Assembly: GCA_965226205.1 (NCBI GenBank)
Contig: CBDDCJ010000012.1
Span: 14,572-78,571 of the forward strand
DNA length: 64,000 nucleotides
DNA from: Opitutales bacterium
Lineage (GTDB): Bacteria > Verrucomicrobiota > Verrucomicrobiia > Opitutales > UBA2987
Reading direction: 5' to 3'
Shown: positions 1,301-64,000 of the stretch, one piece after another
Layout: each line of letters opens with the position of its first letter
How positions within the stretch are numbered: the stretch's first letter is position 1
The notes under the pieces: generated by a model
Databases searched by the model: none
Seen by the model: the letters and a program-made list of their open reading frames with translations, nothing else
Told to the model about the DNA's origin: nothing
Translations under genes and position numbers: made by a program

Positions 1301-1340
1301 GTATATATTATATTCTTATCATGAAATGAAAAAAATGCCT

Positions 1341-5393: not shown

Positions 5394-5399
5394 TCGGCA

Positions 5400-6545: not shown

Positions 6546-6561
6546 AATAGGGGCGCCTTAA

Positions 6562-45098: not shown

Positions 45099-45317
45099 GT
45101 TTGCTACCTACACGATTTTCCACAAAGACCATGGCGGAGCCAGAAGAGGAGCAAAGGAAGATTCTGAAAAATTACTCTGTGGATCTGGAAATTCTGGTTC
45201 GTTATGTCCAGATTTTATCGGCAAGTATGTTAGAGCATGTGAGATTCTGACGATCAATATCTGTCATGCTTTTTGAAATTTAACACAAATAATGAAGATA
45301 AAGGAAGGAAAATTACA

Positions 45318-46082
45318 ATGAGTGGCAAATGGTCAATTGAACAGCTTAACGAATATAATGCAAATGGTTATTATTTTGTGAAAGGATTGTTGAATAAAGA
45401 AGAGGTCAATTTACTGAACGAAGCCGTTCCGGAAATACTACATGATGATCAAAAGTACGCCAGTTTACATCGTGTAAAGGAAAAGAGTGGGGCGGTAAGA
45501 GCAGTATTTCTAGCTCATAGATTCGTTGAGCCGTTCAAAGAGATTATTAGAAACCCTAAAATTTTGATGCCTGTTCAGCAGATTTTGAACAACGATGTTT
45601 ATGTGTGGCATTCAAAGATGAACGTTAAGGACGCGTTTGAAGGTACAGTGTGGCTATGGCACCAAGATTATGGATACTGGTTATGGGATGGAGCTAAAAA
45701 GCCTCGGTTTGTTTCTGTAATGATATTATTAGACAAAGCAACACTGAACAATGGGTGTTTGATGGTAGTAGCCAAATCTCATAAATCGGGCCGTCAAGAG
45801 CATTATCTTGATGAAAATACTACAAGCTATAAGCAGTGGTGTCTAAATACCGACTTTCTAAAAGAAAATGTCAAAGATGAAGATATTATTCATGTGATTG
45901 GAGAGCCTGGCGACGTATTATTCTTTGATTGCAATATTGTTCACGGTTCGGGTCACAACATGTCCCCTCTTTCAAGAAATACATTTATAATAGCGTATAA
46001 TGCTATTGATAATATTCCTGAGAATGTTGAAAACCCGCGTCCGGACTGGGTAGTATCAAAAACCCTTGACATTGTGAAATGA
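45318..46082 (+). CDS. PhyH-family Fe(II)/2-oxoglutarate dioxygenase (ectoine/proline hydroxylase-like)
   Basis: WHQDYGYW HxD motif, NGCL, PGDVLFFDCNIVHGS; visibly AT-rich. Confidence 0.88.
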   Translation: MSGKWSIEQLNEYNANGYYFVKGLLNKEEVNLLNEAVPEILHDDQKYASLHRVKEKSGAVRAVFLAHRFVEPFKEIIRNPKILMPVQQILNNDVYVWHSKMNVKDAFEGTVWLWHQDYGYWLWDGAKKPRFVSVMILLDKATLNNGCLMVVAKSHKSGRQEHYLDENTTSYKQWCLNTDFLKENVKDEDIIHVIGEPGDVLFFDCNIVHGSGHNMSPLSRNTFIIAYNAIDNIPENVENPRPDWVVSKTLDIVK

Positions 46083-49080: not shown

Positions 49081-50880
49081 GAGGCTGTCCCAAAAATATA
49101 AAGATTTTGTAGTCAACTGGATGACGTTTATAAAAATAGCCGGAAAGAGCATTTTTTTGCTCGATCCGGCTAAAAAAGGGTTCTATAATTGCGTTAGCGA
49201 AAATCAATATAGCCCTTTCTATGAAAAATATAGCCATCCAATGCCTCCTGCGTCCAGCTTTAACTGTGGTCGACCGTTGCCTCGATTACGATAACTTTCG
49301 CGCCACCATCGAGCGTATCGACCGGCTGCTGATCGATTCGGAGGTGGAATCGCAGGGCGTTGATCTGGCCTTGGAAAGAGGCCAGCCAATGAGTGTAAAG
49401 GCCCGGCAAAAGCGGGCTAATTTTGCCCTCAAGGCGTTGCGTATGGAAACGCTGCGTTATCTGCTCGGTGGGATTTCGTTTCGGCATTTGTCGAGGGCTC
49501 TGGGCAGCAGCGATCTGTTGGCTGACTTTTGTCGTGTCCGCCATATCGACGGCATAAGGGGCATCTCCAAGAGCACCCTGGAACGGGCCTCGAAGTTTTT
49601 CAGCGAAGAGCAGTTGAGGGCCTTGCACCGGACCTTGACTGAGGTTGTGGGCGATGCCGATCTGGCCCGGCAGGTGGTGGGATTGGACAAGCCGATAGAC
49701 ACCACCATTTGCCTGATCGACGGCACCTGTTTGGAGGTCAACATTCATTGGCCGACGGACTGGGTGCTGCTCAAAGCGATCCGGCTGATCCGTGAGAAGG
49801 CCGGTTTGCGCCATCGCATGCCGATCGAACCGGAGCCCTTGGCTCGGCAGATGAATCGGCTGTGCATACAGATGACCCACAGCCGGCGGCGAAAGGACAG
49901 CGCGCGGCAACGCAAGGGTATCTTGAGGCAGATGAAAAAGCTGCTCAAACGGATCGGGGAGCATGCCCGCAGTCACCGGGAATTATTGCAAGCCTGCTGG
50001 GAGCAAAGCGATTACAGCGAAAAACAGGTCCAACAGATCCTTACCCGGATGGAGCGCATGAGCGAGCTAATCCCGGTGGTCATCAAGCAAGCGCACGAGC
50101 GAATCATTGGCGGCCGCCAGGTGAAAAACGCAGAGAAAGTTTTGAGTGTTTACGAACCCGATGCGCAGGTGATTGTGCGAGGCAAAGCGGGCCAAGAGGT
50201 TGAGTTTGGCAACACCCTGTTTTTGGGTGAAAGCGTTGAAGGATACCTGCTGGACTGGAAACTCTACGGCAGCCGGACGCCAAGCGAAAATGAACAAATG
50301 CAAGAGAGTTTGCAAAGACAGAACCGCTTCAACCTAGCCGAACCCATAGCGGCCATGTGCGCGGACCGGGGATTCGCCTCCCAGCGGGCCCGCCGGCAGT
50401 TAGCCCAGGAGGGCATCTACGATGCGCTCTGTCCACGCGATCCGAAGCAGTTGAAAAAACGGATGGAGGAACCACACTTCAGGCAATTGCAAAAGCGCCG
50501 GGCCAGCACCGAAGGGCGGATCGGGGTATTGAAGAATCGCTGGCAGGCCGGGCGATTGCGCAGCAAAGGCTTTGCCAACCGCTCGATCAGCGTAGCCTGG
50601 TCGGTCCTCTCGCACAATCTATGGAAAGTGGCCAAGATGCTGGCCCAGCAAGATGAACTAAAAACCAAAGCGGCGGCCTAAATAAAGAGCGGAAAAGCAA
50701 GGACAATACTTTTTCACAGGCCTACTGTCGGCCCATACAAAGAAAACCAGGCAAACGGACCCCAAAACCAGAATCCTAACGTCATAGGAGAGCAAAGTCA
50801 CCCCCTCCCAAAAGAAAATACCACTAAAATGAACACTCTTCAAAATCCCCTCGCAAAAATCACCCTTTTGGGACAGCCTC
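49081..50880 (+). mobile_element. 1.8-kb IS (IS5/ISNCY-like DDE) with 7-bp TSD
   Basis: Perfect 15-bp IRs gaggctgtcccaaaa / ttttgggacagcctc; taagtta at 49074-49080 and 50881-50887. Confidence 0.92.
49221..50681 (+). CDS. DDE transposase (IS5/ISNCY-like)
   Basis: LIDGTCLEVNIHWPTD, RGKAGQEVEFG, ADRGF, RASTEGRIGVLK. Confidence 0.85.
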   Translation: MKNIAIQCLLRPALTVVDRCLDYDNFRATIERIDRLLIDSEVESQGVDLALERGQPMSVKARQKRANFALKALRMETLRYLLGGISFRHLSRALGSSDLLADFCRVRHIDGIRGISKSTLERASKFFSEEQLRALHRTLTEVVGDADLARQVVGLDKPIDTTICLIDGTCLEVNIHWPTDWVLLKAIRLIREKAGLRHRMPIEPEPLARQMNRLCIQMTHSRRRKDSARQRKGILRQMKKLLKRIGEHARSHRELLQACWEQSDYSEKQVQQILTRMERMSELIPVVIKQAHERIIGGRQVKNAEKVLSVYEPDAQVIVRGKAGQEVEFGNTLFLGESVEGYLLDWKLYGSRTPSENEQMQESLQRQNRFNLAEPIAAMCADRGFASQRARRQLAQEGIYDALCPRDPKQLKKRMEEPHFRQLQKRRASTEGRIGVLKNRWQAGRLRSKGFANRSISVAWSVLSHNLWKVAKMLAQQDELKTKAAA

Positions 50881-50965
50881 TAAGTTAATTCGTTTATAAA
50901 ACTGTCATAAAGACCGTTTTTAGGGGATTTTGGGCAAATTCGATGTCTATAACACCGTCAGCCTT

Positions 50966-51143
50966 GATAACGTAGGATATCTTTCGCACATTTTTTGTGG
51001 ATGAAAAGGGAGGTCCAAATTAGAAAGACAAAAGATGGACCAAATATTAATAGAAGAACCTAAAGAAGAGCGGAAGATTATCAGTATCGACGAAGGCTAG
51101 GTGCGGGATCATCTGGACAAGAGAGTGCTGAGCAGCGTGGAAG
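50966..51143 (+). pseudogene. IS256-family left end and transposase N-terminal remnant
   Basis: 51035 onward reads MDQILIEEPKEERKIISIDEG*VRDHLDKRVLSSVE, resembling IS256-type N-termini as I recall them; cut by IS66. Confidence 0.55.
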
Positions 51144-51202
51144 GTAAACGGCCGGTGAACTACCTTGTAGCGGAGGGCGGGTCGATGTGTTAAAATGTTT
51201 GG

Positions 51203-51550
51203 ATGGTTGATAAATCGAAGGGAAAACGGATAGTTCGGCGCAATCGCCGCGAGCGTGTGCGGTTGATCGGCGCTTACCGCCACGGAGATTTGTCGCAGCG
51301 GGCGTTCGCCCAGCGGCATGGGATCAACCTCGGGACTTTTGTCGGCTGGCTACGCAAGGATCGGCAAAATGGCGAGAGCGGGGTCGAGGACATGGCCGTA
51401 GCGACCTTCGCCGAAGTAAAGGTGGCCAGCGGCGGCGAGCCCACCGGTTCGATCGAAGTGTTTTTGAATGACGGGGTGCGTATCCGCCTAAAGGGGTCCG
51501 CGGCGGCAGAACAGGCAGCGGCTCTGGTAAAGGCCCTACGAAAAGCGTAA
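51203..51550 (+). CDS. tnpA: IS66 TnpA (HTH)
   Basis: LSQRAFAQRHGINLGTFVGWLRK and FAEV...IEVFL motifs. Confidence 0.85.
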   Translation: MVDKSKGKRIVRRNRRERVRLIGAYRHGDLSQRAFAQRHGINLGTFVGWLRKDRQNGESGVEDMAVATFAEVKVASGGEPTGSIEVFLNDGVRIRLKGSAAAEQAAALVKALRKA

Positions 51551-51554
51551 TGCT

Positions 51555-51905
51555 ATGCTTAATTTTCCAGCATCGTTGAAGATTTATCTGGCTGTGGGGG
51601 TGACGGACCTGCGCAAGAGTTTTAACGGGCTCTATGCCCTGGCCTCCAATCAACTTAAAGTGGATCCTTTGAGCGGAGCGCTCTTTGTTTTCTGCAATCG
51701 CAAGTGCGACCGGGTGAAGATTCTACACTGGGACGGGAGCGGGTTGTGGGTTTATGCCAAGCGGTTGGAGAAGGGACGGTTCAGTTGGCCGCGGGGCCTC
51801 GCGCTCAAGGATGGCAAGCTGCCTTTGCGAGCGGAGGCCTTGAGCATGCTTTTAAGTGGAATCGACTTGAAGGATGGGGCCATGCGACCGTGGTATCAGC
51901 GTTGA
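51555..51905 (+). CDS. tnpB: IS66 accessory protein TnpB
   Basis: TDLRKSFNGL, LFVFCNR, KILHWDGSG, KRLEKGRFSWP. Confidence 0.93.
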   Translation: MLNFPASLKIYLAVGVTDLRKSFNGLYALASNQLKVDPLSGALFVFCNRKCDRVKILHWDGSGLWVYAKRLEKGRFSWPRGLALKDGKLPLRAEALSMLLSGIDLKDGAMRPWYQR

Positions 51906-51979
51906 GAAAAGCGAAAAAAAGATGATTTAGCGGAAATAATACTTGCTTATCTTATCAGAGTTAGTCTAATCTTCTATGC

Positions 51980-53504
51980 ATGTCTCCCCAAGACATAGCA
52001 TCGCTGCAAAAAGACCACCAACGACTCGAACAGGAGAACCGTTTGTTACGGGCCCGTGTCGATTGGCTGATCAAGCGTTACTTCGGGGGCCGGAAAAGCG
52101 AACAGATCGATCCGAAGCAGTTGGAGCTATTGCTGGCGGGGTTATCGAGCGCCGAAAACGAGCCCATCGCCATTGAGAAGACGACCCCTGAATCGGAACT
52201 AACGGCGGAGTCACCAGAGCGGGAACACCCAAAGCCCCGGCGTCGGCGTCTGCCCGATCACCTGGAAGTGCAGGAGGTCATCATCGAACCCGAAGAGGTC
52301 AAAGCGGAACCGCAAAAATGGCGCTGTATCGGCCAGGAGGTGACGGAGGAACTGGATTTAATACCAGCGAAGTTTATCAAACGCCTTTACATCCGCAAAA
52401 AGTATGTCTCCAAGGAACGTCCCACCGAAGCGCCGGTGATCGGGCCTCTGCCCTCACGGCTGATCGACAAGGGGATTCCCGGAGCGGGGCTTTTGGTGCA
52501 CATTTTATTGAGCAAGTACGCCGACCATTTGCCGCTGTATCGGCAGCAGCGCATCTACCAGGAACGCTACGGGGTGAAACTGGCGCGCCAGAGCATGCTC
52601 GGTTGGATGAACCAGGTGGCCGAATGGCTCAAGCCGATTTATAACTACATGCGAGGGCAACTATTAACAGGCGGTTATCTGCAGGTTGATGAAACGCCCA
52701 TTCGCTATCTCGAACCCGATGTGGGAAAGAAAAACGGCAGCCGCAAAGGATACCTTTGGGTTTACGGCCGGCCCGGCGGAGAGGTGGTCTTCGATTGGCA
52801 TACCGGCCGGGGGCTGGAATACCTGCAAAGCTTCCTTAACGGTTACCAAGGGCTGGTGCAAAGTGACGGTTATGGCGTCTACGAAAGCTTTGCCCGAAAA
52901 AACGCCACCGAAGTGACCCTGATCGGCTGTTGGGCTCACCTGCGGCGCAAGTTCGTCGAAGCGCTCGAAGAGAGCCCGAAACTGGATGGCTGGGTGGTGC
53001 GCCAAATCGCCGCCCTTTACCGCCACGAGCGATATCTGCGGGAGCATCGGGCCGGTCCTGCGTTACGCCAAGCCTATCGCCAAAGCCACAGCGCGATGAC
53101 CGTCCAATTGCTGCGCAAAGCCCTGCCGGTGCTAAAACGGAGGGCCCTGCCACGGAGCAAACTAGGCGAGGCCGTGGGCTACGCTTTAAACCAATGGCCG
53201 AGCCTCTGCCGCTACCTCGAACACGGCCAAGTTGAGATCGACAACAACCTGATCGAGAACGCCATTCGCCCGACCGCCCTGGGCAAGAAAAACTGGCTCT
53301 TCATCGGCCACCCCAAGGCCGGATGGCGAAGCGCGGTAATCTACTCGATCATCGAGAGTTGCCGCAGGCACGGCCACGAACCGTCCGAATACCTCACCGA
53401 CGTGCTCAAACGCCTACCCCGACATGATGATTACCGAAATCGGCCAACTAGCGCCGGCCAACTGGAAGCCCGCTCAAGCCATCAAGGACACCATTCCGTC
53501 CTGA
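51980..53504 (+). CDS. tnpC: IS66 transposase TnpC, apparent +1 frameshift near the C-terminus
   Basis: LQVDETP, GCWAHLRRKF, IDNNLIENAIRP; removing one C from cccc (53417-53420) gives RLPDMMITEIGQLAPANWK...PS* ending inside the IS. Confidence 0.88.
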
Positions 53505-53578
53505 TAGCCAAAACCTCCCGAACCCACCAGCAACCCACCAGCATACCCTGTCAACAAGGCAGTTCACCGACCGTTCAC

Positions 53579-53906
53579 ATTCATCAGCATCATCGTTGCT
53601 TTCAGGCCGTCGTTATACTCGTAGCGATATACCACGGGTTCCGCGACCATTTCGCGCATTTGCTCGGGATTGGGATAGCGGTGGCTGAAGGAGTTTGCCT
53701 GCTAGAGCGTTTGACTACGGCAATGACGGGCGTGGAACAGTTCCGGGGGCCCAGCAGTTCTTTGCGAAATGTGCCTCCACTGGGGGTGATAATGATGGCC
53801 AACCGTTTCGGTTTGACGGGGTTCCACAGGCCGAGAGAGGTGACAGCATCCCCCCACACAGTGTGCTCAAAAAGGTGCGTCTGTTGATTTTGGTTTCTTT
53901 TATCAT
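53579..53906 (-). pseudogene. Truncated copy of a decayed Tat-signal protein gene
   Basis: Same as 60399-60726; cut by IS66. Confidence 0.65.
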
Positions 53907-54026
53907 GGATAATTTGCCTTCCACGTCAACATTATGACACCTCCATCTCAGTTACGCTACAAGGTTGTTTTCCCGGACGCTTTAGCCGAAATTACCAATC
54001 CCTGGCGACTTGGCGGTGCGATGATT

Positions 54027-55631
54027 TCAAACCAGATTATACCGTACCTGAATCTCAACATGATCCAGACGCGGAGTGCCTTCGATGCCCGGATTGAGGT
54101 GTTTGACGTCGACTTTCAACTCGTTTTCGCCATTGTTGAGTATCTCCGGGAGCAAGGGGTAGGTGATCCATGTGAAGTTGTCCATTATGTACTGGGCCTG
54201 GGCGGTGCGCGTTTCGGTCGGCAGGAGTTGGTCGTTGACGAACACATCGAACTCATCGGGTTGAGTGTAGTTGTGCAACTTCAGGCGTATTGTGACTTTG
54301 GGCGACAAGATTTGTTGGCGGGCGCTTTCAATATCCTCTGCAAAGCCGAAAGGGATAATGTGCGAACCGATACTTAGATCAATCGGTAGGACGATCGCGT
54401 CGATGGCACGGTAGAAGCGATGATTTTGGCCACGACGGGCACCTATGTTCGACTCGCGTGGGTGGGAATCGAACTTGTAATCGCAGTCGAGGTACCTCAA
54501 TACTTTCGGATCGTGGATTTCGTGCAGGACGCGGAAGTAGTCCGGGTGCAAGTCGTCTAGCCAGACGGTTCTACGGTGTTCTTGGGTTGGTGGTGGTGTA
54601 TTTTTATCGTGGCCGTAGAGCATGTTACCGTAGTTAAAAAGTTGAAGGCCGTGGGCTCCGCGCTGGTACATGAGCTTAGCCCATGCGCGTGTTACCTCTG
54701 TGCGTTTCCACTGGTTGGAACAGGGGTAAATCCAGCAATCATGCCCATCGACTAATTCTAGCCAAGGCTGCAGATCAAGGGTTAATGTCATGTCGCCGAC
54801 ACCGGGGCAGACGGCGTCGACTAAGCCTTCGTTAACCCATGCGCGCACGTCCAGGCCACGTTGCCAGCAGGTGTTTAAGTCAGGCAACACGCGCACATGC
54901 AGATACATCGGTCGCCCACGCTGCTTGGATATGCGGTCGAGCACCTGGCGGGTCTGGCGGACCATGTCGGTGATCAGCTTGAGATTGTCCTCGTTGCCGA
55001 ACTGTTTGAAGTAGCGGGGTTCACGCTCGAAATCGAGAGCCATGCCGTCGTTATCGAAGCGCGTGATGAACTCCTCAATGATCGCCATCTTGTGGTCACG
55101 GACTTCCTTGTGGGCGAAATCGAACATTCCCCAGTTGATAGCATCTATACTCTCGGGGTGCGAATGTCCGCGAAACCCTGTGCCCCACGGTGGCTGCCAG
55201 TCCGGGCCTGTGTAGCCGAGTAGTAGATGCGGGTTGGCCATTTTGAATTTGCTGGCCTCATACTTGAACATTTGGTCGTGATGATCGTTCATGCGAACGA
55301 TGGGGATGACTTTCAGGCCAAGGCGGTGGCCGTATTCGCACGCGAGCTTTGGCGGGTTGGCGTCGGCGTCGATGAGTTTTTTGGTGTTCTCGCGGTAACG
55401 CCAGACCCAGGCGTCGGACACTATATCGAACTCATCGCAGAGGATCTCGCCGCTTTCCAGGCCGCAGCAGTACGCATCGGAGGAGCAGAGGTTGTAGAGA
55501 AGAGTGTCAACCTTTGTGCCAACCAGCGGGCGGATACTTTCGTCAATCCATATTTTAGGTGTAAGCGGATAGTCGGCGCAGACAATGTCGTTCCACTCCG
55601 CTTCCCAGATGAGTTTAAAGGGTTGTTTCAT
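54027..55631 (-). CDS. Putative glycoside-hydrolase-like TIM-barrel protein, copy A
   Basis: VRMND, FDFAHKEVRDH, DGMALDFER, GAHGLQLFNY motifs typical of GHL10-like barrels; probable start MKQPFK at 55631. Confidence 0.7.
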   Translation of the reverse strand: MKQPFKLIWEAEWNDIVCADYPLTPKIWIDESIRPLVGTKVDTLLYNLCSSDAYCCGLESGEILCDEFDIVSDAWVWRYRENTKKLIDADANPPKLACEYGHRLGLKVIPIVRMNDHHDQMFKYEASKFKMANPHLLLGYTGPDWQPPWGTGFRGHSHPESIDAINWGMFDFAHKEVRDHKMAIIEEFITRFDNDGMALDFEREPRYFKQFGNEDNLKLITDMVRQTRQVLDRISKQRGRPMYLHVRVLPDLNTCWQRGLDVRAWVNEGLVDAVCPGVGDMTLTLDLQPWLELVDGHDCWIYPCSNQWKRTEVTRAWAKLMYQRGAHGLQLFNYGNMLYGHDKNTPPPTQEHRRTVWLDDLHPDYFRVLHEIHDPKVLRYLDCDYKFDSHPRESNIGARRGQNHRFYRAIDAIVLPIDLSIGSHIIPFGFAEDIESARQQILSPKVTIRLKLHNYTQPDEFDVFVNDQLLPTETRTAQAQYIMDNFTWITYPLLPEILNNGENELKVDVKHLNPGIEGTPRLDHVEIQVRYNLV

Positions 55632-55687
55632 AATATATTTTCTTTTATTATCAGGGTTAAAAGATTGAACCAACTTCAGTAGCGCCT

Positions 55688-57160
55688 TCAGTAGCGCCCA
55701 ATTCGCCGCGGCCCCAAGTCAATCGAAAGGGCAAGTGAGTCAAACGCCGCTCGAATCAGGCTTTCGCGGATTGAGAGATGCCGCTCGCTCTCCCAAAGGT
55801 TATGATGCTCCCATGGATCTTCATCAAGATCGTAGAGTTCTCCATAGTCAAGGCCATGGTAGGTATTGCACTTGTATCGGCGACCACGGATCATGGTTCC
55901 ATAGCTGCCATTCAATATACTTTCGGTTATGAAATTATCGACGGTATTGTAGTATTCACACCGTACGAAGTCTCGATGGTGATCAGGGGATTTTTTCCCT
56001 TCGAGAATCGGCAACAGCGAACGGCCTTGCATGCGCTCAGGCAAAGGAACACCCACTAGTTCCAGTATCGTTGGCGCCACATCGATGAGTTCCACCAATG
56101 CATTGCTGCGCAAACCGCTTTGAAAATGCCCCGGCAGGCTCATGATCAAGGGTACGCGCACCAGCCCCTCGTAAAAACGGCAGCCTATTCCCGTCAACCC
56201 GTGGTCACCTATTAACTCACCGTGATCGCTCATGAAAATAACCAGCGTATTCTCGCGCTGCCCTGTTTCTTCGAGCAGCTTCAACAACCGACCCACATTA
56301 TGATCAATCAATTCAATCATGGCGTAGTAGGCCGTCGTATTCTCTTTAGTCTCTATTTCGTCGATCTTTCTAGTCTCTATTTCGTCGATCTTTCGCGCCT
56401 GACGACCGCAAAAATCGATGTCGCTCAAGCGTTTTTCATGGTCGAGGTCGCTCTCCCTGAAATGCGGGTTGGGCATTTCATTGGCTTTGTATTTTTCTTT
56501 ATACTCTTGCGGCGGATCAAAAGGTCCATGTGGATCGAACGGATTGACGCTCATTAACCAGGGCCGATCCTTGTTATCCTGAATGAATTCGATGGCCTGG
56601 TCCGTGCACCAGGTGGTTTGATGTAACTGAGGGGGCACCGTGGGCAGGTAGGCGCCATAATCGGTATCCAAACCAGGGGCCTTTTTTTCAAAAATCGATT
56701 CGAGAGGCATGCCTTGCTCGATCAGCCATTTCATGTAATCGTTTCCCTGCTCTACTCGACTGTGTGGGGCATGACTGTAACGGAAAAAGCTATAGCCATC
56801 GTCCACGCGCTTTTCAGGACCTGTGAAGACGGCGGCCAGATGGAGCTTACCGGACAAGCCGCAAACGTAGCCATTATCCGCCAGCAACTTGGGTAATAGA
56901 GGCGCGGCATCGGAAAACGTCTCGTGCCCATTCATACAGGCGCGGATGCTACTGGGATACCTTCCTGTGAGAAAGCTAGACCGGCTGGGTGTGCAGACTG
57001 GGTTCTGGCAAAAAGTATGCGTAAAGGCAACTCCATCCGAGCACAGTCGATCCAAGTTCGGCGTGTGGATACATGGGTTGTTCAAACAATGAATTGTGTC
57101 AAACCGTTGCATATCTGAGGTAAACCACAGAATATTTTTATACTTTATATTTTTTTCCAT
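55688..57160 (-). CDS. Formylglycine-type sulfatase, copy A
   Basis: CTPSRSSFLTG (CxPxR), GKLH, FMSDHG, ELYDL; 24-bp tandem duplication at 56347-56394. Confidence 0.93.
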   Translation of the reverse strand: MEKNIKYKNILWFTSDMQRFDTIHCLNNPCIHTPNLDRLCSDGVAFTHTFCQNPVCTPSRSSFLTGRYPSSIRACMNGHETFSDAAPLLPKLLADNGYVCGLSGKLHLAAVFTGPEKRVDDGYSFFRYSHAPHSRVEQGNDYMKWLIEQGMPLESIFEKKAPGLDTDYGAYLPTVPPQLHQTTWCTDQAIEFIQDNKDRPWLMSVNPFDPHGPFDPPQEYKEKYKANEMPNPHFRESDLDHEKRLSDIDFCGRQARKIDEIETRKIDEIETKENTTAYYAMIELIDHNVGRLLKLLEETGQRENTLVIFMSDHGELIGDHGLTGIGCRFYEGLVRVPLIMSLPGHFQSGLRSNALVELIDVAPTILELVGVPLPERMQGRSLLPILEGKKSPDHHRDFVRCEYYNTVDNFITESILNGSYGTMIRGRRYKCNTYHGLDYGELYDLDEDPWEHHNLWESERHLSIRESLIRAAFDSLALSIDLGPRRIGRY

Positions 57161-57264
57161 TGTTTATTAAATTAAATAAAGTGATTATGGGGGGCATGTC
57201 TAGTGTCTTCATTTGGTCATGTTTAGGAACAAGCTTGAAGATAAGGTGAAAAATACCTATAATA

Positions 57265-57563
57265 GAGGCTATCGCAAAGTTGTAACCAATTGTTTTACAG
57301 TAAGTTAATTCGTTTATAAAACTGTCATAAAGACCGTTTTTAGGGGATTTTGGGCAAATTCGATGTCTATAACACCGTCAGCCTTTCTCTAGTTTTGCAT
57401 ATTCAAATACAATTTCTACCATAGACCTCTATCTGACGCGATTATATTTATTACGAATAGAGGCCTTATTCAGCGTTTTTAACGGAATTGAATGACTTAC
57501 GTGCCCTTACAGTTCTGGGTCGAATATCTCAATTCGCAAAATTCGGGTTTTTGGGACAGCCTC
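57265..57563 (+). mobile_element. 299-bp MITE, complete, with 7-bp TSD
   Basis: Ends gaggctatcgcaaa / tttgggacagcctc; tataata at 57258-57264 and 57564-57570; no credible ORF. Confidence 0.9.
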
Positions 57564-57595
57564 TATAATAGGGTTTCTAACTTGGAACTTTCACA

Positions 57596-59932
57596 TCACT
57601 CATTCGGTCGTATTGACGGGATGGTATCGCCCAGGCTCCAAAGGCACACGACCAGAAAGGTTTTTCGTGTATTCAGAGGCAGTCTATCGGCGGCACATTT
57701 CAGGAAAGTGTTTACGGCGAGTACGATCGCACTGATCCGAAATGCCGCCTCTTCCCCTAGTGCCATCACGGATCGTTGCCCGATTTTGGCCTCGAGATCG
57801 ACCATTAAACGGCGGACCGCTTCGGTGAACCTCTCGGGATCATCCACCTCGTAGGCGTGAAGGATTTCCGTGAGATCTTTAAGAGACGCAGATTTTGCTT
57901 CCTCGTCGATGGTACGGTTGCGCCGAAATCTGCGAAGCGTCTCCTTGATCAAGGTTTCGATGCCCTCCGCCCGCGAGAGTTCATCCTGAGATATCAACTG
58001 ATAGAATCTACCATCTGCGCCGAGGGCTAAACAGACACTGTTGAGAAGCTGTAGCTGATTTGGGGTTGATCGGAAACGTTGCAGGCATTCGAGCGTGGGC
58101 CGAACCATGCGATGGTCGCGCGTGCGGCCGAGAACGCCCGCGAGGGTAGGAAATGTGACTCGGTCGAAGCCCGATGCGAATTTTTGAAAAAGGAGTTCGT
58201 TGACCTGTTCACTGCCAATTTCTGAAAGGGCTGAAATGGCGCTGATCTGCACTCTTCCGTCGAAATCATCGAGCGCATCGACAAGGGGACCGATAACAGC
58301 CGGATCGCCGATCTTTCCAAGTGCTTCAGCAGCTTCACTTCGGACATCGGATTCCTCGTCCGCCAACTTCCCGGCCAGGGGAAGGATGGCTTCAAGGGTC
58401 CGTGCTTCCCCGAGTCCGTGAGCGGCATTGCGACGCACCTCGGGACTGGCATCGGCCAAGGCTGCAACAAGGCGGTCGAGAGCCATGGGGCTCCTGGATC
58501 GACCCATTCGCCGAAGGGCGCGTGCCCGTGTGCGCACGCTGAATGTCCGATCAAAAGTAAACGAACCGAAGATATAACTGAGGAGATTGCCGCGACCGAT
58601 ATGCGCAAACAAGCGGCCCGGTGTTGTATCCTTGGAGTCTTCAACGTTTCTGAGAAGAATTATCGGCACAGTGAACGCAGCTGCGCTTATGAAAAATACC
58701 ATTTGCAGATTTCCAATGGTATAACCTAACAGGTGCATCTCAAAGTCCGCCAGTATCTTGACCAGTATGCTCCCGAGAATGGGTGACAGGAATAAGGCGA
58801 ATTGGATAGAGGAAGACCAGGTAGCAAAATGAGTGGTCTTGCTTTCGCGATCCGGCAACAGCGAATAAAGGAGCGGGATGATGGAGACAAGAATCCCGGC
58901 CTGGAGGAAGCCGTTTAAAAACATCGCCGCAGCGATCGGTAGGTAATTGCCGGGAGTATTAAAAATCCATAGCAACGGAATAAGCACTGTAGGGGCGACC
59001 GTAATCCGGAGAACCGCCTTTCCTCCATACCTATCCACAAGACCGCCCCATGCTTTGTAACCGATTACCAGTGAAGCCATGAAGATACTGTTCAGCAGGG
59101 CGACTATTCCGTAGTCAATATCGAGCATTTTGAGCAAGAAAATACTGTAAAACGGTCCCGCGATACCCAGTGCGAAATTCCATGACAGAAAGAAGAACAG
59201 GAGATTGCGAAAGCCCTTGTGGCGAAGTGGATCGAATAGATTTCCTACCGACTGGTTCGATGTAGATTGCCGGTAGGGAATACGCATCAGGTTAAAATAC
59301 CCGGTCAGGCCTAGTATCGTGGCAACTGCGAATACGATGAGAAATCCTGAGTATTGCTCGTCATGCGCAAACAGATCCAGATACCAACCGACTGCAAAGG
59401 CGGTCACTATGCCCGGTATCAATTGAGCGGTCGCCTGCCGGCCGGTGAATCGTCCGCGGATATCGTTGGGAACCGTGTTGGCAATCCATTCGTTGTAGAG
59501 CGGAGCCTTCAACTGACCGCAGATCAATCCCACCGCAAGAACAACACCCATAGCAAAGACAAGATTCTCTCCAAACATGAAGAAGGGAATAAGAACGATT
59601 GCGGAACGAAGCAGGATTTCCCCGCTCCCCAGCAAAAGAATAAACACTTTCCTCCGGACAACCCGCGCTGTGAGAGCAGGTGAAGCGATCTGAACCAGGC
59701 CCGTGAGGTGGACTATGGCCACTAACAAAGCGATCTGCGCATCTGACGCCCCCAGCCAGATCACATAGCCCGTGAAGGGCGCAGTTCCGATGCCGACGAT
59801 GCGCGCCCAGGCGCCCCACGCCCCGCTGGTCAAAAGAAAAGTACGCAAAGCCCGGGCAGTCTCGCTCGATGATAAGGGGCGAGTGTCATCAGCGGTTTCG
59901 TCAGTTAAGGTTTGGGCTTCAATCGAAAACAT
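57596..59932 (-). CDS. MFS transporter fused to a C-terminal HEAT-repeat domain
   Basis: About 12 hydrophobic segments with WGGLVDRYGGK motif, then EVRRNAAHGLG / DVRSEAAEALGKIG repeats. Confidence 0.85.
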   Translation of the reverse strand: MFSIEAQTLTDETADDTRPLSSSETARALRTFLLTSGAWGAWARIVGIGTAPFTGYVIWLGASDAQIALLVAIVHLTGLVQIASPALTARVVRRKVFILLLGSGEILLRSAIVLIPFFMFGENLVFAMGVVLAVGLICGQLKAPLYNEWIANTVPNDIRGRFTGRQATAQLIPGIVTAFAVGWYLDLFAHDEQYSGFLIVFAVATILGLTGYFNLMRIPYRQSTSNQSVGNLFDPLRHKGFRNLLFFFLSWNFALGIAGPFYSIFLLKMLDIDYGIVALLNSIFMASLVIGYKAWGGLVDRYGGKAVLRITVAPTVLIPLLWIFNTPGNYLPIAAAMFLNGFLQAGILVSIIPLLYSLLPDRESKTTHFATWSSSIQFALFLSPILGSILVKILADFEMHLLGYTIGNLQMVFFISAAAFTVPIILLRNVEDSKDTTPGRLFAHIGRGNLLSYIFGSFTFDRTFSVRTRARALRRMGRSRSPMALDRLVAALADASPEVRRNAAHGLGEARTLEAILPLAGKLADEESDVRSEAAEALGKIGDPAVIGPLVDALDDFDGRVQISAISALSEIGSEQVNELLFQKFASGFDRVTFPTLAGVLGRTRDHRMVRPTLECLQRFRSTPNQLQLLNSVCLALGADGRFYQLISQDELSRAEGIETLIKETLRRFRRNRTIDEEAKSASLKDLTEILHAYEVDDPERFTEAVRRLMVDLEAKIGQRSVMALGEEAAFRISAIVLAVNTFLKCAADRLPLNTRKTFLVVCLWSLGDTIPSIRPNE

Positions 59933-60083
59933 GTGGACGGTTAGAACTACGGATTTAGAAAGTCAAGTCGATCAGGTTCCCAACTCATTAAATTCTGAAT
60001 ACTGTCTGTCAGGGTTGTCCAACCTGAGTGCTTAAGTTGAGACAGTTCATTGGTCCTCTCAATCCCTGCCGTCTCTGGTCCTT

Positions 60084-60726
60084 TCAACGGGCAAGACAAA
60101 GTTGGTTACATGCGCCAAAATTGTGACTCTTGCGGGCTTGATAGCGTACGCCCAGGTGCGGTGTTTCCAGTCGCTTGCCAATGGTTAGGGATTGGAGACC
60201 GGCTTCCACCAGGCCGCTAGTCAGCAGTGTGCTCTCGACGGGATAGGGTGCCTTGCCGGTGAGGAACATATCTTCAACCTTGGACATTAATGCGGCAGAG
60301 TATACGACGTTGGGACCTGGCGGCAGGTAGAAGAGGGTCGACAGTGGATCGGGCTTTCCTTTCAACTTTGCGGCGAAGGTGAAATCGCTGACAAGACCAT
60401 TCATCAGCATCATCGTTGCTTTCAGGCCGTCGTTATACTCGTAGCGATATACCACGGGTTCCGCGACCATTTCGCGCATTTGCTCGGGATTGGGATAGCG
60501 GTGGCTGAAGGAGTTTGCCTGCTAGAGCGTTTGACTACGGCAATGACGGGCGTGGAACAGTTCCGGGGGCCCAGCAGTTCTTTGCGAAATGTGCCTCCAC
60601 TGGGGGTGATAATGATGGCCAACCGTTTCGGTTTGACGAGGTTCCACAGGCCGAGAGAGGTGACAGCATCCCCCCACACAGTGTGCTCAAAAAGGTGCGT
60701 CTGTTGATTTTGGTTTCTTTTATCAT
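60084..60726 (-). pseudogene. Decayed gene for a Tat-exported conserved hypothetical protein
   Basis: MIKETKINRRTFL...SAC signal, frameshift to PKRLAIIIT, in-frame stop (CRSQTL*QANSFSHRYP), intact-looking C-terminus ...GKAPYPVESTLLTSG...RLETPHL. Confidence 0.65.
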
Positions 60727-60846
60727 GGATAATTTGCCTTCCACGTCAACATTATGACACCTCCATCTCAGTTACGCTACAAGGTTGTTTTCCCGGACGC
60801 TTTAGCCGAAATTACCAATCCCTGGCGACTTGGCGGTGCGATGATT

Positions 60847-62454
60847 TCAAACCAGATTATACCGTACCTGAATCTCAACATGATCCAGACGCGGAGTGCC
60901 TTCGATGCCCGGATTGAGGTGTTTGACGTCGACTTTCAACTCGTTTTCGCCATTGTTGAGTATCTCCGGGAGCAAGGGGTAGGTGATCCATGTGAAGTTG
61001 TCCATTATGTACTGGGCCTGGGCGGTGCGCGTTTCGGTCGGCAGGAGTTGGTCGTTGACGAACACATCGAACTCATCGGGTTGAGTGTAGTTGTGCAACT
61101 TCAGGCGTATTGTGACTTTGGGCGACAAGATTTGTTGGCGGGCGCTTTCAATATCCTCTGCAAAGCCGAAAGGGATAATGTGCGAACCGATACTTAGATC
61201 AATCGGTAGGACGATCGCGTCGATGGCACGGTAGAAGCGATGATTTTGGCCACGACGGGCACCTATGTTCGACTCGCGTGGGTGGGAATCGAACTTGTAA
61301 TCGCAGTCGAGGTACCTCAATACTTTCGGATCGTGGATTTCGTGCAGGACGCGGAAGTAGTCCGGGTGCAAGTCGTCTAGCCAGACGGTACCAGAGCGAT
61401 CTTGGGTTGGTGGTGGTGTATTTTTATCGTGGCCGTAGAGCATGTTACCGTAGTTAAAAAGTTGAAGGCCGTGGGCTCCGCGCTGGTACATGAGCTTAGC
61501 CCATGCGCGTGTTACCTCTGTGCGTTTCCAGTGGTTGGAACAGGGGTAAATCCAGCAATCATGCCCATCGACTAGTTCTAGCCAAGGCTGCAGATCAAGG
61601 GTTAACATCATGTAGCCGGCGCCGGGGCAGACGGCGTCGACTAAGCCTTCGTTAACCCATGCGCGCACGTCCAGGCCACGTTGCCAGCAGGTGTTTAAGT
61701 CAGGCAATACGCGCACATGCAGATACATCGGTCGCCCACGCTGCTTGGATACGCGGTCGAGCAACTGGCGGGTCTGGCGGACCATGTCGGTGATCAGCTT
61801 GAGATTGTCCTCGTTGCCGAACTGTTTGAAGTAGCGGGGGTCACGCTCGAAATCGAGAGCCATGCCGTCGTTATCGAAGCGCGTGATGAACTCCTCAATG
61901 ATCGCCATCTTGTGGTCACGGACTTCCTTGTGGGCGAAATCGAACATTCCCCAGTTGGTAGCATCTATACTCTCGGGGTGCGGATGTTCGCGAAACCCTG
62001 TGCCCCACGGTGGCTGCCAGTCCGGGCCTGTGTAGCCGAGTAGTAGATGCGGGTTGGCCATTTTGAATTTGCTGGCCTCATACTTGTGGTTTTGGTCGTG
62101 CGGATCGTTCATGCGAACGATGGGGATGACTTTCAGGCCAAGGCGGTGGCCGTATTCGCACGCGAGCTTTGGCGGGTTGGCGTCGGCGTCGATGAGTTTT
62201 TTGGTGTTCTCGCGGTAACGCCAGACCCAGGCGTCGGACACTATATCGAACTCATCGCAGAGGATCTCGCCGCTTTCCAGGCCGCAGCAGTACGCATCGG
62301 AGGAGCAGAGGTTGTAGAGAAGGGTGTCAACCTTTGTGCCAACCAGCGGGCGGATACTTTCGTCAATCCATATTTTAGGTGTAAGCGGATAGTCGGCGCA
62401 GACAATGTCATTCCACTCCGCTTCCCAGATGAGTTTAAAGGGTTGTTCGCTCAT
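60847..62454 (-). CDS. Putative glycoside-hydrolase-like TIM-barrel protein, copy B
   Basis: Paralog of 54027-55631 with 17 internal amino-acid differences by my count. Confidence 0.7.
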   Translation of the reverse strand: MSEQPFKLIWEAEWNDIVCADYPLTPKIWIDESIRPLVGTKVDTLLYNLCSSDAYCCGLESGEILCDEFDIVSDAWVWRYRENTKKLIDADANPPKLACEYGHRLGLKVIPIVRMNDPHDQNHKYEASKFKMANPHLLLGYTGPDWQPPWGTGFREHPHPESIDATNWGMFDFAHKEVRDHKMAIIEEFITRFDNDGMALDFERDPRYFKQFGNEDNLKLITDMVRQTRQLLDRVSKQRGRPMYLHVRVLPDLNTCWQRGLDVRAWVNEGLVDAVCPGAGYMMLTLDLQPWLELVDGHDCWIYPCSNHWKRTEVTRAWAKLMYQRGAHGLQLFNYGNMLYGHDKNTPPPTQDRSGTVWLDDLHPDYFRVLHEIHDPKVLRYLDCDYKFDSHPRESNIGARRGQNHRFYRAIDAIVLPIDLSIGSHIIPFGFAEDIESARQQILSPKVTIRLKLHNYTQPDEFDVFVNDQLLPTETRTAQAQYIMDNFTWITYPLLPEILNNGENELKVDVKHLNPGIEGTPRLDHVEIQVRYNLV

Positions 62455-62536
62455 TTAATGTGCTCTGGCTGAAAGTTCATAATAAATTTTCTTTCATTAT
62501 CAGGGTTAAAAGATTGAACCAACTTCAGTAGCGCCT

Positions 62537-63985
62537 TCAGTAGCGCCCAATTCGCCGCGGCCCCAGATCAATCGAAAGGGCAAGTGAGTCAAACGCCGCT
62601 CGAATCAGGCTTTCGCGGATTGAGAGATGCCGCTCGCTCTCCCAAAGGTTATGATGCTCCCATGGATCTTCATCAAGATCGTAGAGTTCTCCATAGTCAA
62701 GGCCATGGTAGGTATTGCACTTGTATCGGCGACCACGGATCATGGTTCCATAGCTGCCATTCAATATACTTTCGGTTATGAAATTATCGACGGTATTGTA
62801 GTATTCACACCGTACGAAGTCTCGATGGTGATCAGGGGATTTTTTCCCTTCGAGAATCGGCAACAGCGAACGGCCTTGCATGCGCTCAGGCAAAGGAACA
62901 CCCACTAGTTCCAGTATCGTTGGCGCCACATCGATGAGTTCCACCAATGCATTGCTGCGCAAACCGCTTTGAAAATGCCCCGGCAGGCTCATGATCAGAG
63001 GTACGCGCACCAGCCCCTCGTAAAAACGGCAGCCTATTCCCGTCAACCCGTGGTCACCTATTAACTCACCGTGATCGCTCATGAAAATAACCAGCGTATT
63101 CTCGCGCTGCCCTGTTTCTTCGAGCAGCTTCAACAACCGACCCACATTATGATCAATCAATTCAATCATGGCGTAGTAGGCCGTCGTATTCTCTTTAGTC
63201 TCTATTTCGTCGATTTTTCGCGCCTGACGATCGCAAAAATCGATGTCGCTCAAGCGTTTTTCATGGTCGAGGTCGCTCTCCCTGAAATGCGGGTTGGGCA
63301 TTTCATTGGCTTTGTATTTTTCTTTATACTCTTGCGGCGGATCAAAAGGTCCATGTGGATCGAACGGATTGACGCTCATTAACCAGGGCCGATCCTTGTT
63401 ATCCTGAATGAATTCGATGGCCTGGTCCGTGCACCAGGTGGTTTGATGTAACTGAGGGGGCACCGTGGGCAGGTAGGCGCCATAATCGGTATCCAAACCA
63501 GGGGCCTTTTTTTCAAAAATCGATTCGAGAGGCATGCCTTGCTCGATCAGCCATTTCATGTAATCGTTTCCCTGCTCTACTCGACTGTGTGGGGCATGAC
63601 TGTAACGGAAAAAGCTATAGCCATCGTCCACGCGCTTTTCAGGACCTGTGAAGACGGCGGCCAGATGGAGCTTACCGGACAAGCCGCAAACGTAGCCATT
63701 ATCCGCCAGCAACTTGGGTAATAGAGGCGCGGCATCGGAAAACGTCTCGTGCCCATTCATACAGGCGCGGATGCTACTGGGATACCTTCCTGTGAGAAAG
63801 CTAGACCGGCTGGGTGTGCAGACTGGGTTCTGGCAAAAAGTATGCGTAAAGGCAACTCCATCCGAGCACAGTCGATCCAAGTTCGGCGTGTGGATACATG
63901 GGTTGTTCAAACAATGAATTGTGTCAAACCGTTGCATATCTGAGGTAAACCACAGAATATTTTTATACTTTATATTTTTTTCCAT
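62537..63985 (-). CDS. Formylglycine-type sulfatase, copy B
   Basis: Same motifs as copy A; lacks the 8-aa duplication. Confidence 0.93.
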   Translation of the reverse strand: MEKNIKYKNILWFTSDMQRFDTIHCLNNPCIHTPNLDRLCSDGVAFTHTFCQNPVCTPSRSSFLTGRYPSSIRACMNGHETFSDAAPLLPKLLADNGYVCGLSGKLHLAAVFTGPEKRVDDGYSFFRYSHAPHSRVEQGNDYMKWLIEQGMPLESIFEKKAPGLDTDYGAYLPTVPPQLHQTTWCTDQAIEFIQDNKDRPWLMSVNPFDPHGPFDPPQEYKEKYKANEMPNPHFRESDLDHEKRLSDIDFCDRQARKIDEIETKENTTAYYAMIELIDHNVGRLLKLLEETGQRENTLVIFMSDHGELIGDHGLTGIGCRFYEGLVRVPLIMSLPGHFQSGLRSNALVELIDVAPTILELVGVPLPERMQGRSLLPILEGKKSPDHHRDFVRCEYYNTVDNFITESILNGSYGTMIRGRRYKCNTYHGLDYGELYDLDEDPWEHHNLWESERHLSIRESLIRAAFDSLALSIDLGPRRIGRY

Positions 63986-64000
63986 TGTTTATTAAATTAA

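Follow-up and report, generated by a model that had tools for sequence, protein, structure and literature searches.

The locus described here raises the question of why two neighbouring hydrolase genes that are 96% identical (copies A and B) differ mostly by amino acid replacements gathered in tight clusters, when the sulfatase genes duplicated along with them show the opposite pattern. Both pairs lie in a 64,000-nucleotide stretch (the window) of contig C12 from the genome assembly of a marine Opitutales bacterium. The original prediction, made by eye from the sequence, offered two answers: recent neofunctionalisation under positive selection, or patchwise gene conversion from a third paralogue.

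Tandem organization of the locus

Self-BLAST and a three-way alignment revealed a head-to-tail array of a 6.8-kb unit, with two full units and a third one ended by the contig end (Table 1). The unit, whose first copy starts exactly at 53578, is made up of a gene for an MFS transporter fused to HEAT repeats, a MITE, a sulfatase and the hydrolase. The unit 1/unit 2 and unit 2/unit 3 junction sequences are identical, and contigs from four runs in three studies stop 30 nt past both the flank/unit and the unit/unit junctions, which is the behaviour expected at a branch point. Two occurrences of the unit/unit junction in the contig, and further ones in the contigs of these runs, show that the array exists, and a cytoplasmic catabolic cassette has indeed been amplified in tandem in this genome. 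Judged from the assembled contigs alone, the A and B alleles appear to share one chromosome. The IS66-family element adjoining the array is not repeated at the unit junctions.

Units 1 and 2 differ by 38 substitutions, 26 of them within 713 bp (54570-55282). Outside the diverged stretch the units are nearly identical: there are 37 substitutions in 54570-57373 versus none in 57374-60397, and a single difference (at 53819) in 53578-54569. The contig ends 60 bp ahead of the variable region of unit 3.

Table 1. Features of the array and its left flank (window coordinates, except where contig C12 is named)
Feature	Position	Strand	Remarks
IS66-family element	51203..53451	+	immediately left of the array
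Unit 1	53578..60397 (6,820 bp)	-	hydrolase A, sulfatase A, MITE, MFS-HEAT gene; self-BLAST and three-way alignment
Hydrolase copy A, GH156-like	54027..55631	-	534 aa from ATG (MKQPF...); longest ORF from TTG at 55673
Hydrolase A stretch with all 28 internal substitutions	54570..55590	-	dense clusters at 54570-54579, 54786-54801 and 55267-55282
Sulfatase copy A	55688..57160	-	PF00884, 490 aa, CTPSR formylglycine motif
MITE	57263..57565	.	303 bp; between MFS gene and sulfatase in both units
Tract without unit 1/unit 2 difference	57374..60397 (3,024 bp)	.	continues via 53578-54569, bar the one difference
MFS transporter fused to HEAT repeats	57596..59932	-	778 aa; no difference between units
Unit 2	60398..64000, beyond the window end to C12 81793	-	alignment, common junction
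Hydrolase copy B, GH156-like	60847..62454	-	535 aa (MSEQPF...); GH156 match, model pLDDT 93.5
29 bp found in unit 2 only	62447..62475	-	contains the hydrolase B start codon; makes the N-termini differ
Sulfatase copy B	62537..63985	-	482 aa
Unit 3	C12 81794-82726		directly after unit 2; cut short by the contig end

The sulfatase pair behaves as originally described, with five silent changes and one replacement (G252D); copy A has, in addition, an in-frame duplication of 24 bp (56347-56370). Sulfatase copy A has no signal peptide. A further, 90%-identical sulfatase copy on contig C21 is broken and has no adjoining hydrolase. MITE copies of at least 280 nt number 143 and are spread over 25 of 29 contigs; the genome abounds in IS elements, MITEs and pseudogenes, so that purifying selection may be weak in general. 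Rfam gave no match in 50000-64000, and promoter-like and terminator-like signals were no more frequent than in shuffled sequences. A common synteny with an Acidimicrobiia homologue of the hydrolase was considered and rejected, the PhyH gene at 45273-46082 being only 29% identical to the PhyH gene adjoining that homologue.

Substitutions and evolutionary rates in the hydrolase pair

Codon by codon (54027-55634 versus 60847-62454, minus strand, the first three codons shifted by the 29-bp indel being left out), the hydrolase copies differ by 28 substitutions in 22 codons, with 17 replacement and five silent codons (15, 44, 249, 278 and 294). These are exactly the figures counted by eye, and the six codons listed there as carrying double substitutions (CAT/CCG, ATG/AAC, TTC/CAC, ACA/ATG, CGT/TCT and AGA/GGT) are exactly those found. 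When 28 substitutions were placed at random over 357 codons, at least six multi-hit codons arose in none of 50,000 simulations, so the pattern exceeds chance. The 3' end, taken earlier to be identical over ~530 bp, is the same in both copies over 543 nt (54027-54569). Both reading frames are intact. The 29-bp insertion also occurs in contigs of runs X12, X14 and X15, and the start methionine of hydrolase A is shared with the homologous proteins P0118 and P0115. In several of the double hits the two bases are adjacent and derived in the same copy; single multi-nucleotide mutations could account for these.

The hydrolase pair shows Nd 21.5, Sd 6.5 and an omega of 0.90, against Nd 1, Sd 5 and an omega of 0.055 for the sulfatase pair, whose dS is alike (0.016 vs 0.019). 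Compared with the outgroup locus L014, the hydrolase has an omega of 0.19-0.22. The replacement excess is apparent both against the sulfatase pair (Fisher P=0.008, with only six changes on the sulfatase side) and against the gene's own long-term pattern relative to the outgroup (Fisher P=0.005); at an omega of 0.2, the Poisson probability of at least 21 replacements is 6e-8. The expectation that the hydrolase ratio would exceed that of the sulfatase is thus borne out, and the excess of replacements is clear, yet dN/dS is not above 1. For this reason any claim of positive selection has to draw solely on site heterogeneity and recurrent hits, and neutrality is not rejected for the A or B branch taken singly (N:S of about 11:3 and 11:2 in the polarised list). 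Some of the codons in question also vary within the outgroup.

The hydrolase as a distant relative of GH156

Pfam and NCBIfam models assign no family to the hydrolase. The original suggestion of a TIM-barrel fold is nevertheless supported, since both the structural model and a sequence profile point to a GH156-like glycosidase. The AF2 model (pLDDT 93.5) matches EnvSia156 in Foldseek with E 1.9e-34 (TM 0.75/0.81), and in VIA residues 6-532 of the model superimpose on chain residues 7-502 with Z 35.8 and an rmsd of 2.5 A over 452 residues, spanning both domains. A profile built from 68 homologues matches 6rzd_A with E 2.1e-30 over residues 163-337. On the predicted structure and the profile, the hydrolase is a distant relative of this enzyme, with a sequence identity of only 18-20%. 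EnvSia156 (PDB 6RZD, 6S00, 6S04) is described as a GH156 inverting exo-sialidase with an Asp14 base and a His134 acid as catalytic dyad, a carboxylate-coordinating triad of Arg129, Arg202 and Asn346, and an aromatic +1 leaving-group platform of Trp164, Phe203, Phe278 and Trp279 (PMC6811678).

Both proteins have a (beta/alpha)8 barrel followed by a C-terminal beta-sandwich (452/497 residues aligned), and four active-centre positions are aligned between them. Hydrolase R204, R248 and N334 align to R202, R246 and N346 of EnvSia156; all three are invariant, R204 and N334 across the 68 sequences, and these two are aligned at high posterior. The invariant R114-M-N-D117-x-H119 of the hydrolase repeats the R-x-x-D-x-H spacing of R129/D132/H134, a match of motif spacing only. 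For the equivalent of the base Asp14, E13 and D16 (each at least 90% conserved) are candidates. With the N-terminal 160 residues, phmmer found no match to EnvSia156, and a five-sequence profile aligned 168-200 only. The loop following the histidine is 17 residues longer than in EnvSia156. The aromatic +1 pocket is replaced in the hydrolase by Thr/Ile166 (Phe in the family), Asp/Glu205, Gly278 and Ala/Val279 (Cys in the family), although the aromatic platform is a feature of EnvSia156 and not a stated criterion of the GH156 family. The leaving group therefore probably differs from that of EnvSia156. Going by these residues, the clade would have kept sialidase-type carboxylate binding with a different leaving-group pocket, and the sugar removed is most likely a carboxylated keto-sugar of the sialic-acid or ulosonic-acid type.

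GHL10 (PF02638) is a more remote relation. It is borne by P0105, the most distant match of the homologue search, and by 14-24% of the members of clusters neighbouring the hydrolase by language model; the next structural match is a Cwp19-type protein (Z 26.8). The hydrolase stays under every Pfam threshold, GHL10 included, and GH156 is a far closer relative than either. Of the 105 proteins obtained in the homologue search, most full-length ones are 47-76% identical, and marine metagenomes are the main source; apart from the most distant one, none carries a Pfam model. Among 40 related genomes there was no close orthologue, and paralogue-level matches reached at most 47% local identity in eight of them, the long and strong ones being 24-35% identical. 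The genome_contigs search gave one locus, 59% identical, and the metagenome_contigs search five, L014 being the only close full-length relative; a 59%-identical homologue has two BNR_2 genes and one gene of the YhcH family as neighbours. The cluster of hydrolase relatives has 26 members, about 16 of which were covered here, and a second cluster look-up added only the frameshifted P0120. We know of no activity for this clade.

Variable sites and the predicted pocket

As had been predicted, the replacements gather in the loops that follow the barrel strands: 15 of the 17 sites lie there (loops cover 158 of 357 positions; P=1.7e-4); sites 231 and 235 lie in an outer helix. Three variable sites align to three of the four leaving-group-pocket residues of EnvSia156, namely 205 to F203 and 279 to W279 (posterior about 0.9 or better) and 166 to W164 (posterior about 0.45), and codon 278, aligned to F278, has changed only silently. 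The residues aligned to the sugar-binding (-1) site are unchanged in both copies. From alignment and topology, the variable sites are predicted to line the pocket, where they would adjoin His119, the presumed acid, and Arg204, the carboxylate-binding residue. The strand-end motifs pointed out earlier had been read correctly; their adjacency to conserved columns, on the other hand, is not distinctive, as the protein is highly conserved. Variable sites lie within one residue of an invariant column in 5/17 cases versus 111/218 for the other non-conserved positions, and within two residues in 11/17 versus 151/218, so that there is no enrichment.

Polarity of the changes and traces of recombination

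Of the polarised differences, A has the derived state in 14 and B in 13, one is three-way, and they are interleaved inside the same clusters. Codon 123, originally Y, became F in A and H in B. In the sister lineage variation recurs at these same codons, and among close alleles codon 355 encodes R, G, T or S and codon 156 G, E or K. Copy B agrees with the distant homologues at sites 166, 279 and 281, where copy A matches the sister lineage. Adjacent changes derived in a single copy form runs, such as those at nt 365-367 (B) and 848-849 (A). At well-conserved columns copy A carries residues other than those of the family consensus, including Y281D (Y in 59/65), H308Q (H in 56/65), D205E (D in 54/65), P158S and G355R, which could mean decay.

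Recombination among the alleles leaves its traces in mosaic alleles and in the sharp border between the diverged and the identical tract. An intact A-type allele occurs in two other assemblies (P0118, P0119), and P0119 is a natural mosaic, B-type at the N-terminus and L231 and otherwise A-type in the pocket. Contigs from X11 and X14, two runs of one sample, show differing mosaics of A and B letters, and those of run X15 break at two variant clusters.

Competing explanations

At a probability of roughly 0.55, we favour diversifying selection that acts on leaving-group specificity, while recombination homogenises the remainder of the tandem-amplified unit. An importer (MFS-HEAT), a formylglycine-type sulfatase and a two-domain GH156-like glycosidase would have been amplified together; selection would then diversify the partner sugar or aglycone accepted by the glycosidase, while recombination or gene conversion would keep the alleles otherwise identical, leaving islands of divergence in a homogenised array. 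Of the claim of neofunctionalisation under positive selection, the replacement excess and the concentration at the pocket hold good, and the ratio of 0.90, not being above 1, does not support it as stated; selection on the pair appears probable. The less likely, though most serious, rival is relaxed constraint with clustered mutation: redundant copies would collect neutral replacements and multi-nucleotide events, with A decaying and no adaptive meaning. An omega close to the neutral value would suit this, as would the non-consensus residues of copy A, the runs of adjacent changes, and a genome with many IS elements and MITEs and one broken sulfatase paralogue. It accounts poorly for an equally duplicated sulfatase held at 0.055, for the gathering of 15 of 17 sites on the catalytic face, for the fully unchanged -1 site, and for an even split of changes between A and B within the same small windows; nor would it predict two intact frames, an A-type allele intact in two other assemblies, or renewed variation of the same codons in the sister lineage.

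A different history is conceivable, though doubtful, in which A and B are strain alleles that the assembly put in adjoining units, or in which a 2.8-kb foreign allele replaced part of a unit by homologous recombination, so that the replacement excess would reflect allelic diversity between strains instead of divergence after duplication. The diverged tract (54570-57373) has a dS of about 0.02 in both genes, against one difference in the other ~4 kb, which fits an imported segment; given a dS of 0.017, the probability of no silent change in the MFS gene is about 1e-4. The X11 and X14 mosaics, P0119 and the contig break before the variable part of unit 3 agree with this history as well. However, the array itself exists, popping of bubbles between two alleles of one genome would also yield mosaic contigs, and the history, if so altered, leaves the concentration of replacements at the pocket as it is. 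Patchwise conversion with a more diverged third paralogue or a silent cassette as donor, in the manner of antigenic-variation systems, is improbable. It draws on the short dense patches (six changes in 10 nt, five in 16 nt, six in 16 nt) and on the affinities of sites 166, 279 and 281. The donor that it demands was not found: tblastn of both proteins against the 91%-complete assembly gave the array copies and one 28%-identical gene on contig C14 (an unassembled donor being compatible with that completeness), and 11-mers of the six patch versions gave 4-30 scattered matches each, about the chance rate (by hand estimate roughly 2 per 11-mer in 8.6 Mb, both strands). Moreover, a donor under purifying selection would have left mostly silent differences, and only 5 of 22 codons are silent. 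Dense clusters in a ligand-binding region also recall targeted hypermutation driven by a diversity-generating retroelement, or site-specific inversion acting as a switch, both highly improbable here and rejected. Adenine is present in either copy (coding strand) at only 12 of 28 differences by hand tally, with no one-sided A-to-N pattern; tblastn and 11-mers revealed no template-like second copy in the assembly; and 53400-64000 holds no inverted repeats of at least 18 nt.

Diversifying selection with homogenising recombination could also be taken a speculative step further. In an array with at least three hydrolase alleles, intra-array conversion might reshuffle short pocket patches (118-123, 156-166, 205, 279-284, 308 and 352-355). 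For a sulfated acidic sugar, one lineage would then maintain and continually rearrange a small combinatorial set of leaving-group specificities, which, if true, would parallel cassette-based antigenic variation in catabolism. Hints of this kind are the X11/X14 mosaics, the X15 breaks at two clusters, P0119 and the contig end ahead of the variable part of unit 3.

Significance and comparison with known systems

The pair, with 17 changes around a predicted pocket, would offer a natural snapshot of duplicates being retuned, and few wild bacterial genomes show amplification, homogenisation and active-site divergence together. The solved structure of a relative, in which the -1 and +1 subsites are defined, provides a structural handle, which yields 15 candidate specificity residues. 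The locus also points to a large GH156-related clade, linked here to a sulfatase and an importer, whose substrate could reveal the use of sulfated acidic sugars by marine Verrucomicrobia and others.

Two known kinds of system come closest to this array: mosaic tandem paralogues diverging under interlocus gene conversion with selection, of which a preprint (bioRxiv 10.1101/2025.10.29.685298) gives an example, and innovation-amplification-divergence, a model of the evolution of new genes. Common features are the head-to-tail arrangement, kilobase-long identity with divergence limited to a short stretch, the amplification of the whole cassette and the intactness of both copies. Unlike these systems, the present case concerns a bacterial catabolic cassette, comes from environmental or host-associated sequence, and has its conversion deduced from mosaic alleles.

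Organization of the tandem array

Self-comparison revealed a head-to-tail repeat, in which 60398-62447 matches 53578-55627 (29 mismatches in 2,050 positions) and a second block, 62476-64000, matches 55627-57175. The repeated unit carries on the minus strand an MFS_1 + HEAT_2 fusion gene (with an extra ~190-aa tail in the protein, and identical in units 1 and 2), a MITE, a PF00884 sulfatase gene and a gene for a 534/535-aa hydrolase. The unit 1/unit 2 and unit 2/unit 3 junctions are identical over 50 nt on either side, and the left flank joins the array at the same first unit base, with no obvious repeat or mobile element at that junction. An IS66-family element adjoins the array on the left; its transposase ORF passes the end of IS66 similarity (~53451) and reaches 310 nt into unit 1. 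The MITE occurs in 143 copies of at least 280 nt (87-100% identical) on 25 of the 29 contigs of the 4.29-Mb genome, some of them head to tail.

The array was compared with contigs (not raw reads) of four public sequencing runs (X11, X12, X14 and X15, from three studies, X11 and X14 representing one sample). Contigs from each of the runs stop at 53607 and at 60427, which is 30 nt beyond the flank/unit and the unit/unit junction, respectively, with another contig starting at 53578. This 30-nt overlap is one letter under the bridging criterion used; the ends past both junctions together with the restart form a branch-point pattern, which argues that both junctions are present. Overall, the tandem array is real.

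Features of the array and its surroundings (window coordinates unless contig C12 is named), with substitutions between units 1 and 2
Feature	Position (strand)	Size or remark	Substitutions
Array unit 1	53578-60397	6,820 bp
Array unit 2	60398 to C12 81793
Array unit 3	from C12 81794	933 bp, then cut by contig end
Single position	53819		1
Hydrolase copy A	54027-55631 (-)	unit 1
Hydrolase copy B	60847-62454 (-)	unit 2
Hydrolase, variable part	54570-55590	26 inside 54570-55282	28
Intergenic			2
Sulfatase			6
24-bp tandem duplication, sulfatase copy A	56347-56370	RKIDEIET twice
MITE	57263-57565	303 bp	1
Invariant stretch	57374-60397		0
MFS_1-HEAT_2 fusion gene	57596-59932 (-)	778 aa
IS66 transposase ORF	51980-53887 (+)	635 aa
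MITE piece	50881-50965	85 bp
PhyH gene	45273-46082

Divergence between the units

In a three-way alignment, units 1 and 2 differ by 38 substitutions and two indels, one of 29 bp that alters the hydrolase start and one of 24 bp, in frame, in the sulfatase. Both hydrolase copies are intact. The codon comparison reproduced exactly the figures of the original prediction, made by eye, for copies A and B (replacements in 17 codons, silent changes in 5 and double changes in 6), and their 3' 543 nt, expected to be identical, indeed show no difference. Six multi-hit codons were reached in none of 50,000 random placements of the substitutions. The opposite pattern claimed for the sulfatase was likewise recovered, with 1 replacement, 5 silent changes and the in-frame indel. 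The latter is a perfect tandem duplication in copy A; copy B lacks it, and contigs of run X12 have the short form. The sulfatase pair also shows, twice, AG in unit 1 vs GA in unit 2 on the plus strand (55717-55718 and 56149-56150; 62566-62567 and 62998-62999 in unit 2), each swap amounting to two silent changes in adjacent codons (xxC TTG / xxT CTG). The unit-2 form is present in contigs from all four runs, and the swaps may reflect either recurrent dinucleotide mutation or an assembly error in unit 1.

By Nei-Gojobori counts, the hydrolase pair has Sd 6.5 and Nd 21.5 (dS 0.019, dN 0.017, omega 0.90), vs Sd 5 and Nd 1 (dS 0.016, omega 0.055) for the sulfatase pair. Comparison of the hydrolase with the sole DNA outgroup, L014 (a 1,786-bp metagenome contig encoding a 95% identical protein), gave a dS of about 0.11 and an omega of 0.19-0.22. 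The excess of hydrolase replacements is significant relative to the sulfatase (Fisher P=0.008) and to the B-outgroup comparison (P=0.005), and under an omega of 0.2 the probability of at least 21 replacements would be 6e-8. Polarisation by L014 places 14 of the 28 differences on the A side and 13 on the B side, with one three-way; A- and B-derived changes interleave in the same small clusters, with replacement to silent ratios, read from the polarised list, of about 11:3 and 11:2, respectively. For example, the outgroup, A and B read TAC, TTC and CAC at codon 123 and ACT, AGA and GGT at codon 355. Replacements are several-fold above the long-term ratio of the gene, and both copies have them. 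Since omega does not exceed 1, the positive selection originally proposed is not borne out at the level of the whole gene; the replacement excess itself stands.

The hydrolase and sulfatase pairs each show ~2% silent divergence, whereas the MFS gene shows none, an outcome with a P of about 1e-4 at a dS of 0.017. The unit is therefore made up of one diverged tract (54570-57373) and a ~4-kb identical tract. This is compatible either with an older duplication that conversion has homogenised in part, or with a recent one into which a foreign allele was recombined.

Related alleles were assessed in the 90% protein cluster of the hydrolase (16 of its 26 members examined). P0118 and P0119, from other assemblies, are A-type alleles, the latter carrying a B-type N-terminus and L231. 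Sites that differ between A and B are also variable in a sister lineage, represented by P0001 and others (118 P/H, 122 M/F, 281 D/N, 283 T/M, 355 S/T); one of its alleles, the 418-aa P0120, loses the frame after residue 381, owing either to breakage of that copy or to an error of sequencing in the source assembly. P0111 and P0113 represent one of each N-terminus type and have longest contigs of equal length (55,621), which suggests two hydrolase copies in their lineage as well. The consensus of 65 more remote homologues is mostly matched by copy B, which departs from it at 122, 123 and 283; copy A departs at P118, P158, D205, Y281, H308, R353 and G355. Mean family entropy is 1.52 at the variable sites vs 1.07 elsewhere (P=0.013).

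Fold of the hydrolase and location of the variable sites

Pfam and NCBIfam offered no family for the hydrolase. Its predicted structure (68 homologues, pLDDT 93.5) is an eight-stranded barrel from residue 1 to ~380 followed by a beta-sandwich, and the top structural match by a wide margin is EnvSia156, the GH156 inverting exo-sialidase (Foldseek E 1.9e-34), in agreement with the TIM barrel assumed originally. The VIA comparison gave Z 35.8 and rmsd 2.5 A over 452 residues of both domains (next, Cwp19, Z 26.8), and the family profile matched the EnvSia156 sequence with E 2.1e-30. The EnvSia156 report (PMC6811678) describes a base Asp14 and an acid His134, a carboxylate triad of Arg129, Arg202 and Asn346, a buried Arg246, glycerol-chain contacts by Asp132 and Cys53, and a leaving-group (+1) pocket of Trp164, Phe203, Phe278 and Trp279; a 2022 preprint gives the same dyad and triad as family criteria (10.1101/2022.06.28.497753). 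The profile alignment pairs R204, R248 and N334, each invariant or close to it, with Arg202, Arg246 and Asn346. The alignment gave no residue-level match to EnvSia156 for the N-terminal third; there, R114, D117 and H119 of the invariant motif R114-M-N-D117-x-H119 are spaced like Arg129, Asp132 and His134 and, on this spacing, are their candidate equivalents.

Variable site 118 lies between D117 and H119, with 122 and 123 directly after. Site 205 follows R204 and is aligned to Phe203, and 279, which 281 and 283 adjoin, is aligned to Trp279 at a posterior of about 0.9; 166 is aligned to Trp164 at a low posterior (about 0.45), and codon 278, aligned to Phe278, has a silent change only. Sites 156 and 158 fall in the long post-strand-3 loop, 308 after strand 7 and 352-355 in the post-strand-8 loop; 231 and 235 are conservative changes on an outer helix. 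No A/B difference was found at any residue aligned with the sugar-binding (-1) subsite, and variable sites are not enriched next to invariant columns. Beta-to-alpha loops make up 158 of 357 positions yet hold 15 of the 17 variable sites (hypergeometric P=1.7e-4; 7 of 8 when counted as clusters, roughly P=0.02 by hand arithmetic), which by alignment and topology upholds the predicted placement in pocket loops. Overall, the replacements, which recur at the same codons in close lineages, appear to ring the conserved catalytic centre, including positions matching the EnvSia156 leaving-group pocket.

Proposed selection and alternative explanations

The most economical account, to which we assign a probability of roughly 0.55, is that selection diversifies leaving-group specificity and that differences elsewhere are removed by recombination or conversion. 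Selection would retune the hydrolase at its pocket sites, and exchange between copies would erase differences over the rest of the unit. Neutral relaxation together with clustered mutation, which an omega of 0.90 would fit, is unlikely, if the strongest of the alternatives; the concentration of the changes in the loops speaks against it.

Somewhat less probable still are strain alleles joined by the assembly or by recent recombination. The mosaic of A and B letters differs in each run's contig: of the two runs sharing a sample, X11 gives 13 B letters and X14 gives 20 together with the 29-bp insertion; X15 contigs break beside variant sites (54403-54465, 54785-54802) and the X12 B letters at 54570-54579 and 54711 derive solely from the run's change-type tallies. 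Such mosaics could come from the contig builder choosing one branch per variant; A and B letters are both real, found in samples from three studies, and the mosaics do not give the linkage between them. A hidden donor cassette could deliver clustered changes as well, but we consider it improbable, as the third paralogue originally proposed as donor found no support in this assembly. Targeted hypermutation, which might likewise cluster changes, is very improbable.

Comparison with known GH156 systems

Distant GH156-like paralogues (24-47% local identity) occur in genomes of relatives, with 14 matches in the 8.3-Mb G008, five in G039 and four each in G004, G005 and G007; they are absent from three of the four same-genus genomes searched. 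A sulfatase paralogue of about 89% protein identity at 139278-140713 of C21, another contig of the assembly, is probably a pseudogene, its coding sequence being spread across two or more frames; it adjoins a MITE and a transposase resembling 49221-50681, with no hydrolase gene after it.

No signal peptide was apparent by eye in the hydrolase or the sulfatase, so that by sequence the cassette looks like one of import, then desulfation, then hydrolysis, all intracellular; some hydrolase homologues do have a twin-arginine leader. A limited search of titles and abstract openings found no link of GH156 to sulfatase cassettes in marine bacteria. In an Acidimicrobiia MAG, a 59% identical homologue (L016 1871-3628, locus 284-7136) lies among genes for two sialidase-type BNR_2 propellers, a YhcH/YjgK protein (DUF386) and a PhyH dioxygenase. 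Shared PhyH synteny was rejected, the PhyH of the window being only 29% identical. The BNR_2 and YhcH/YjgK neighbourhood fits a sialic-acid-like substrate.
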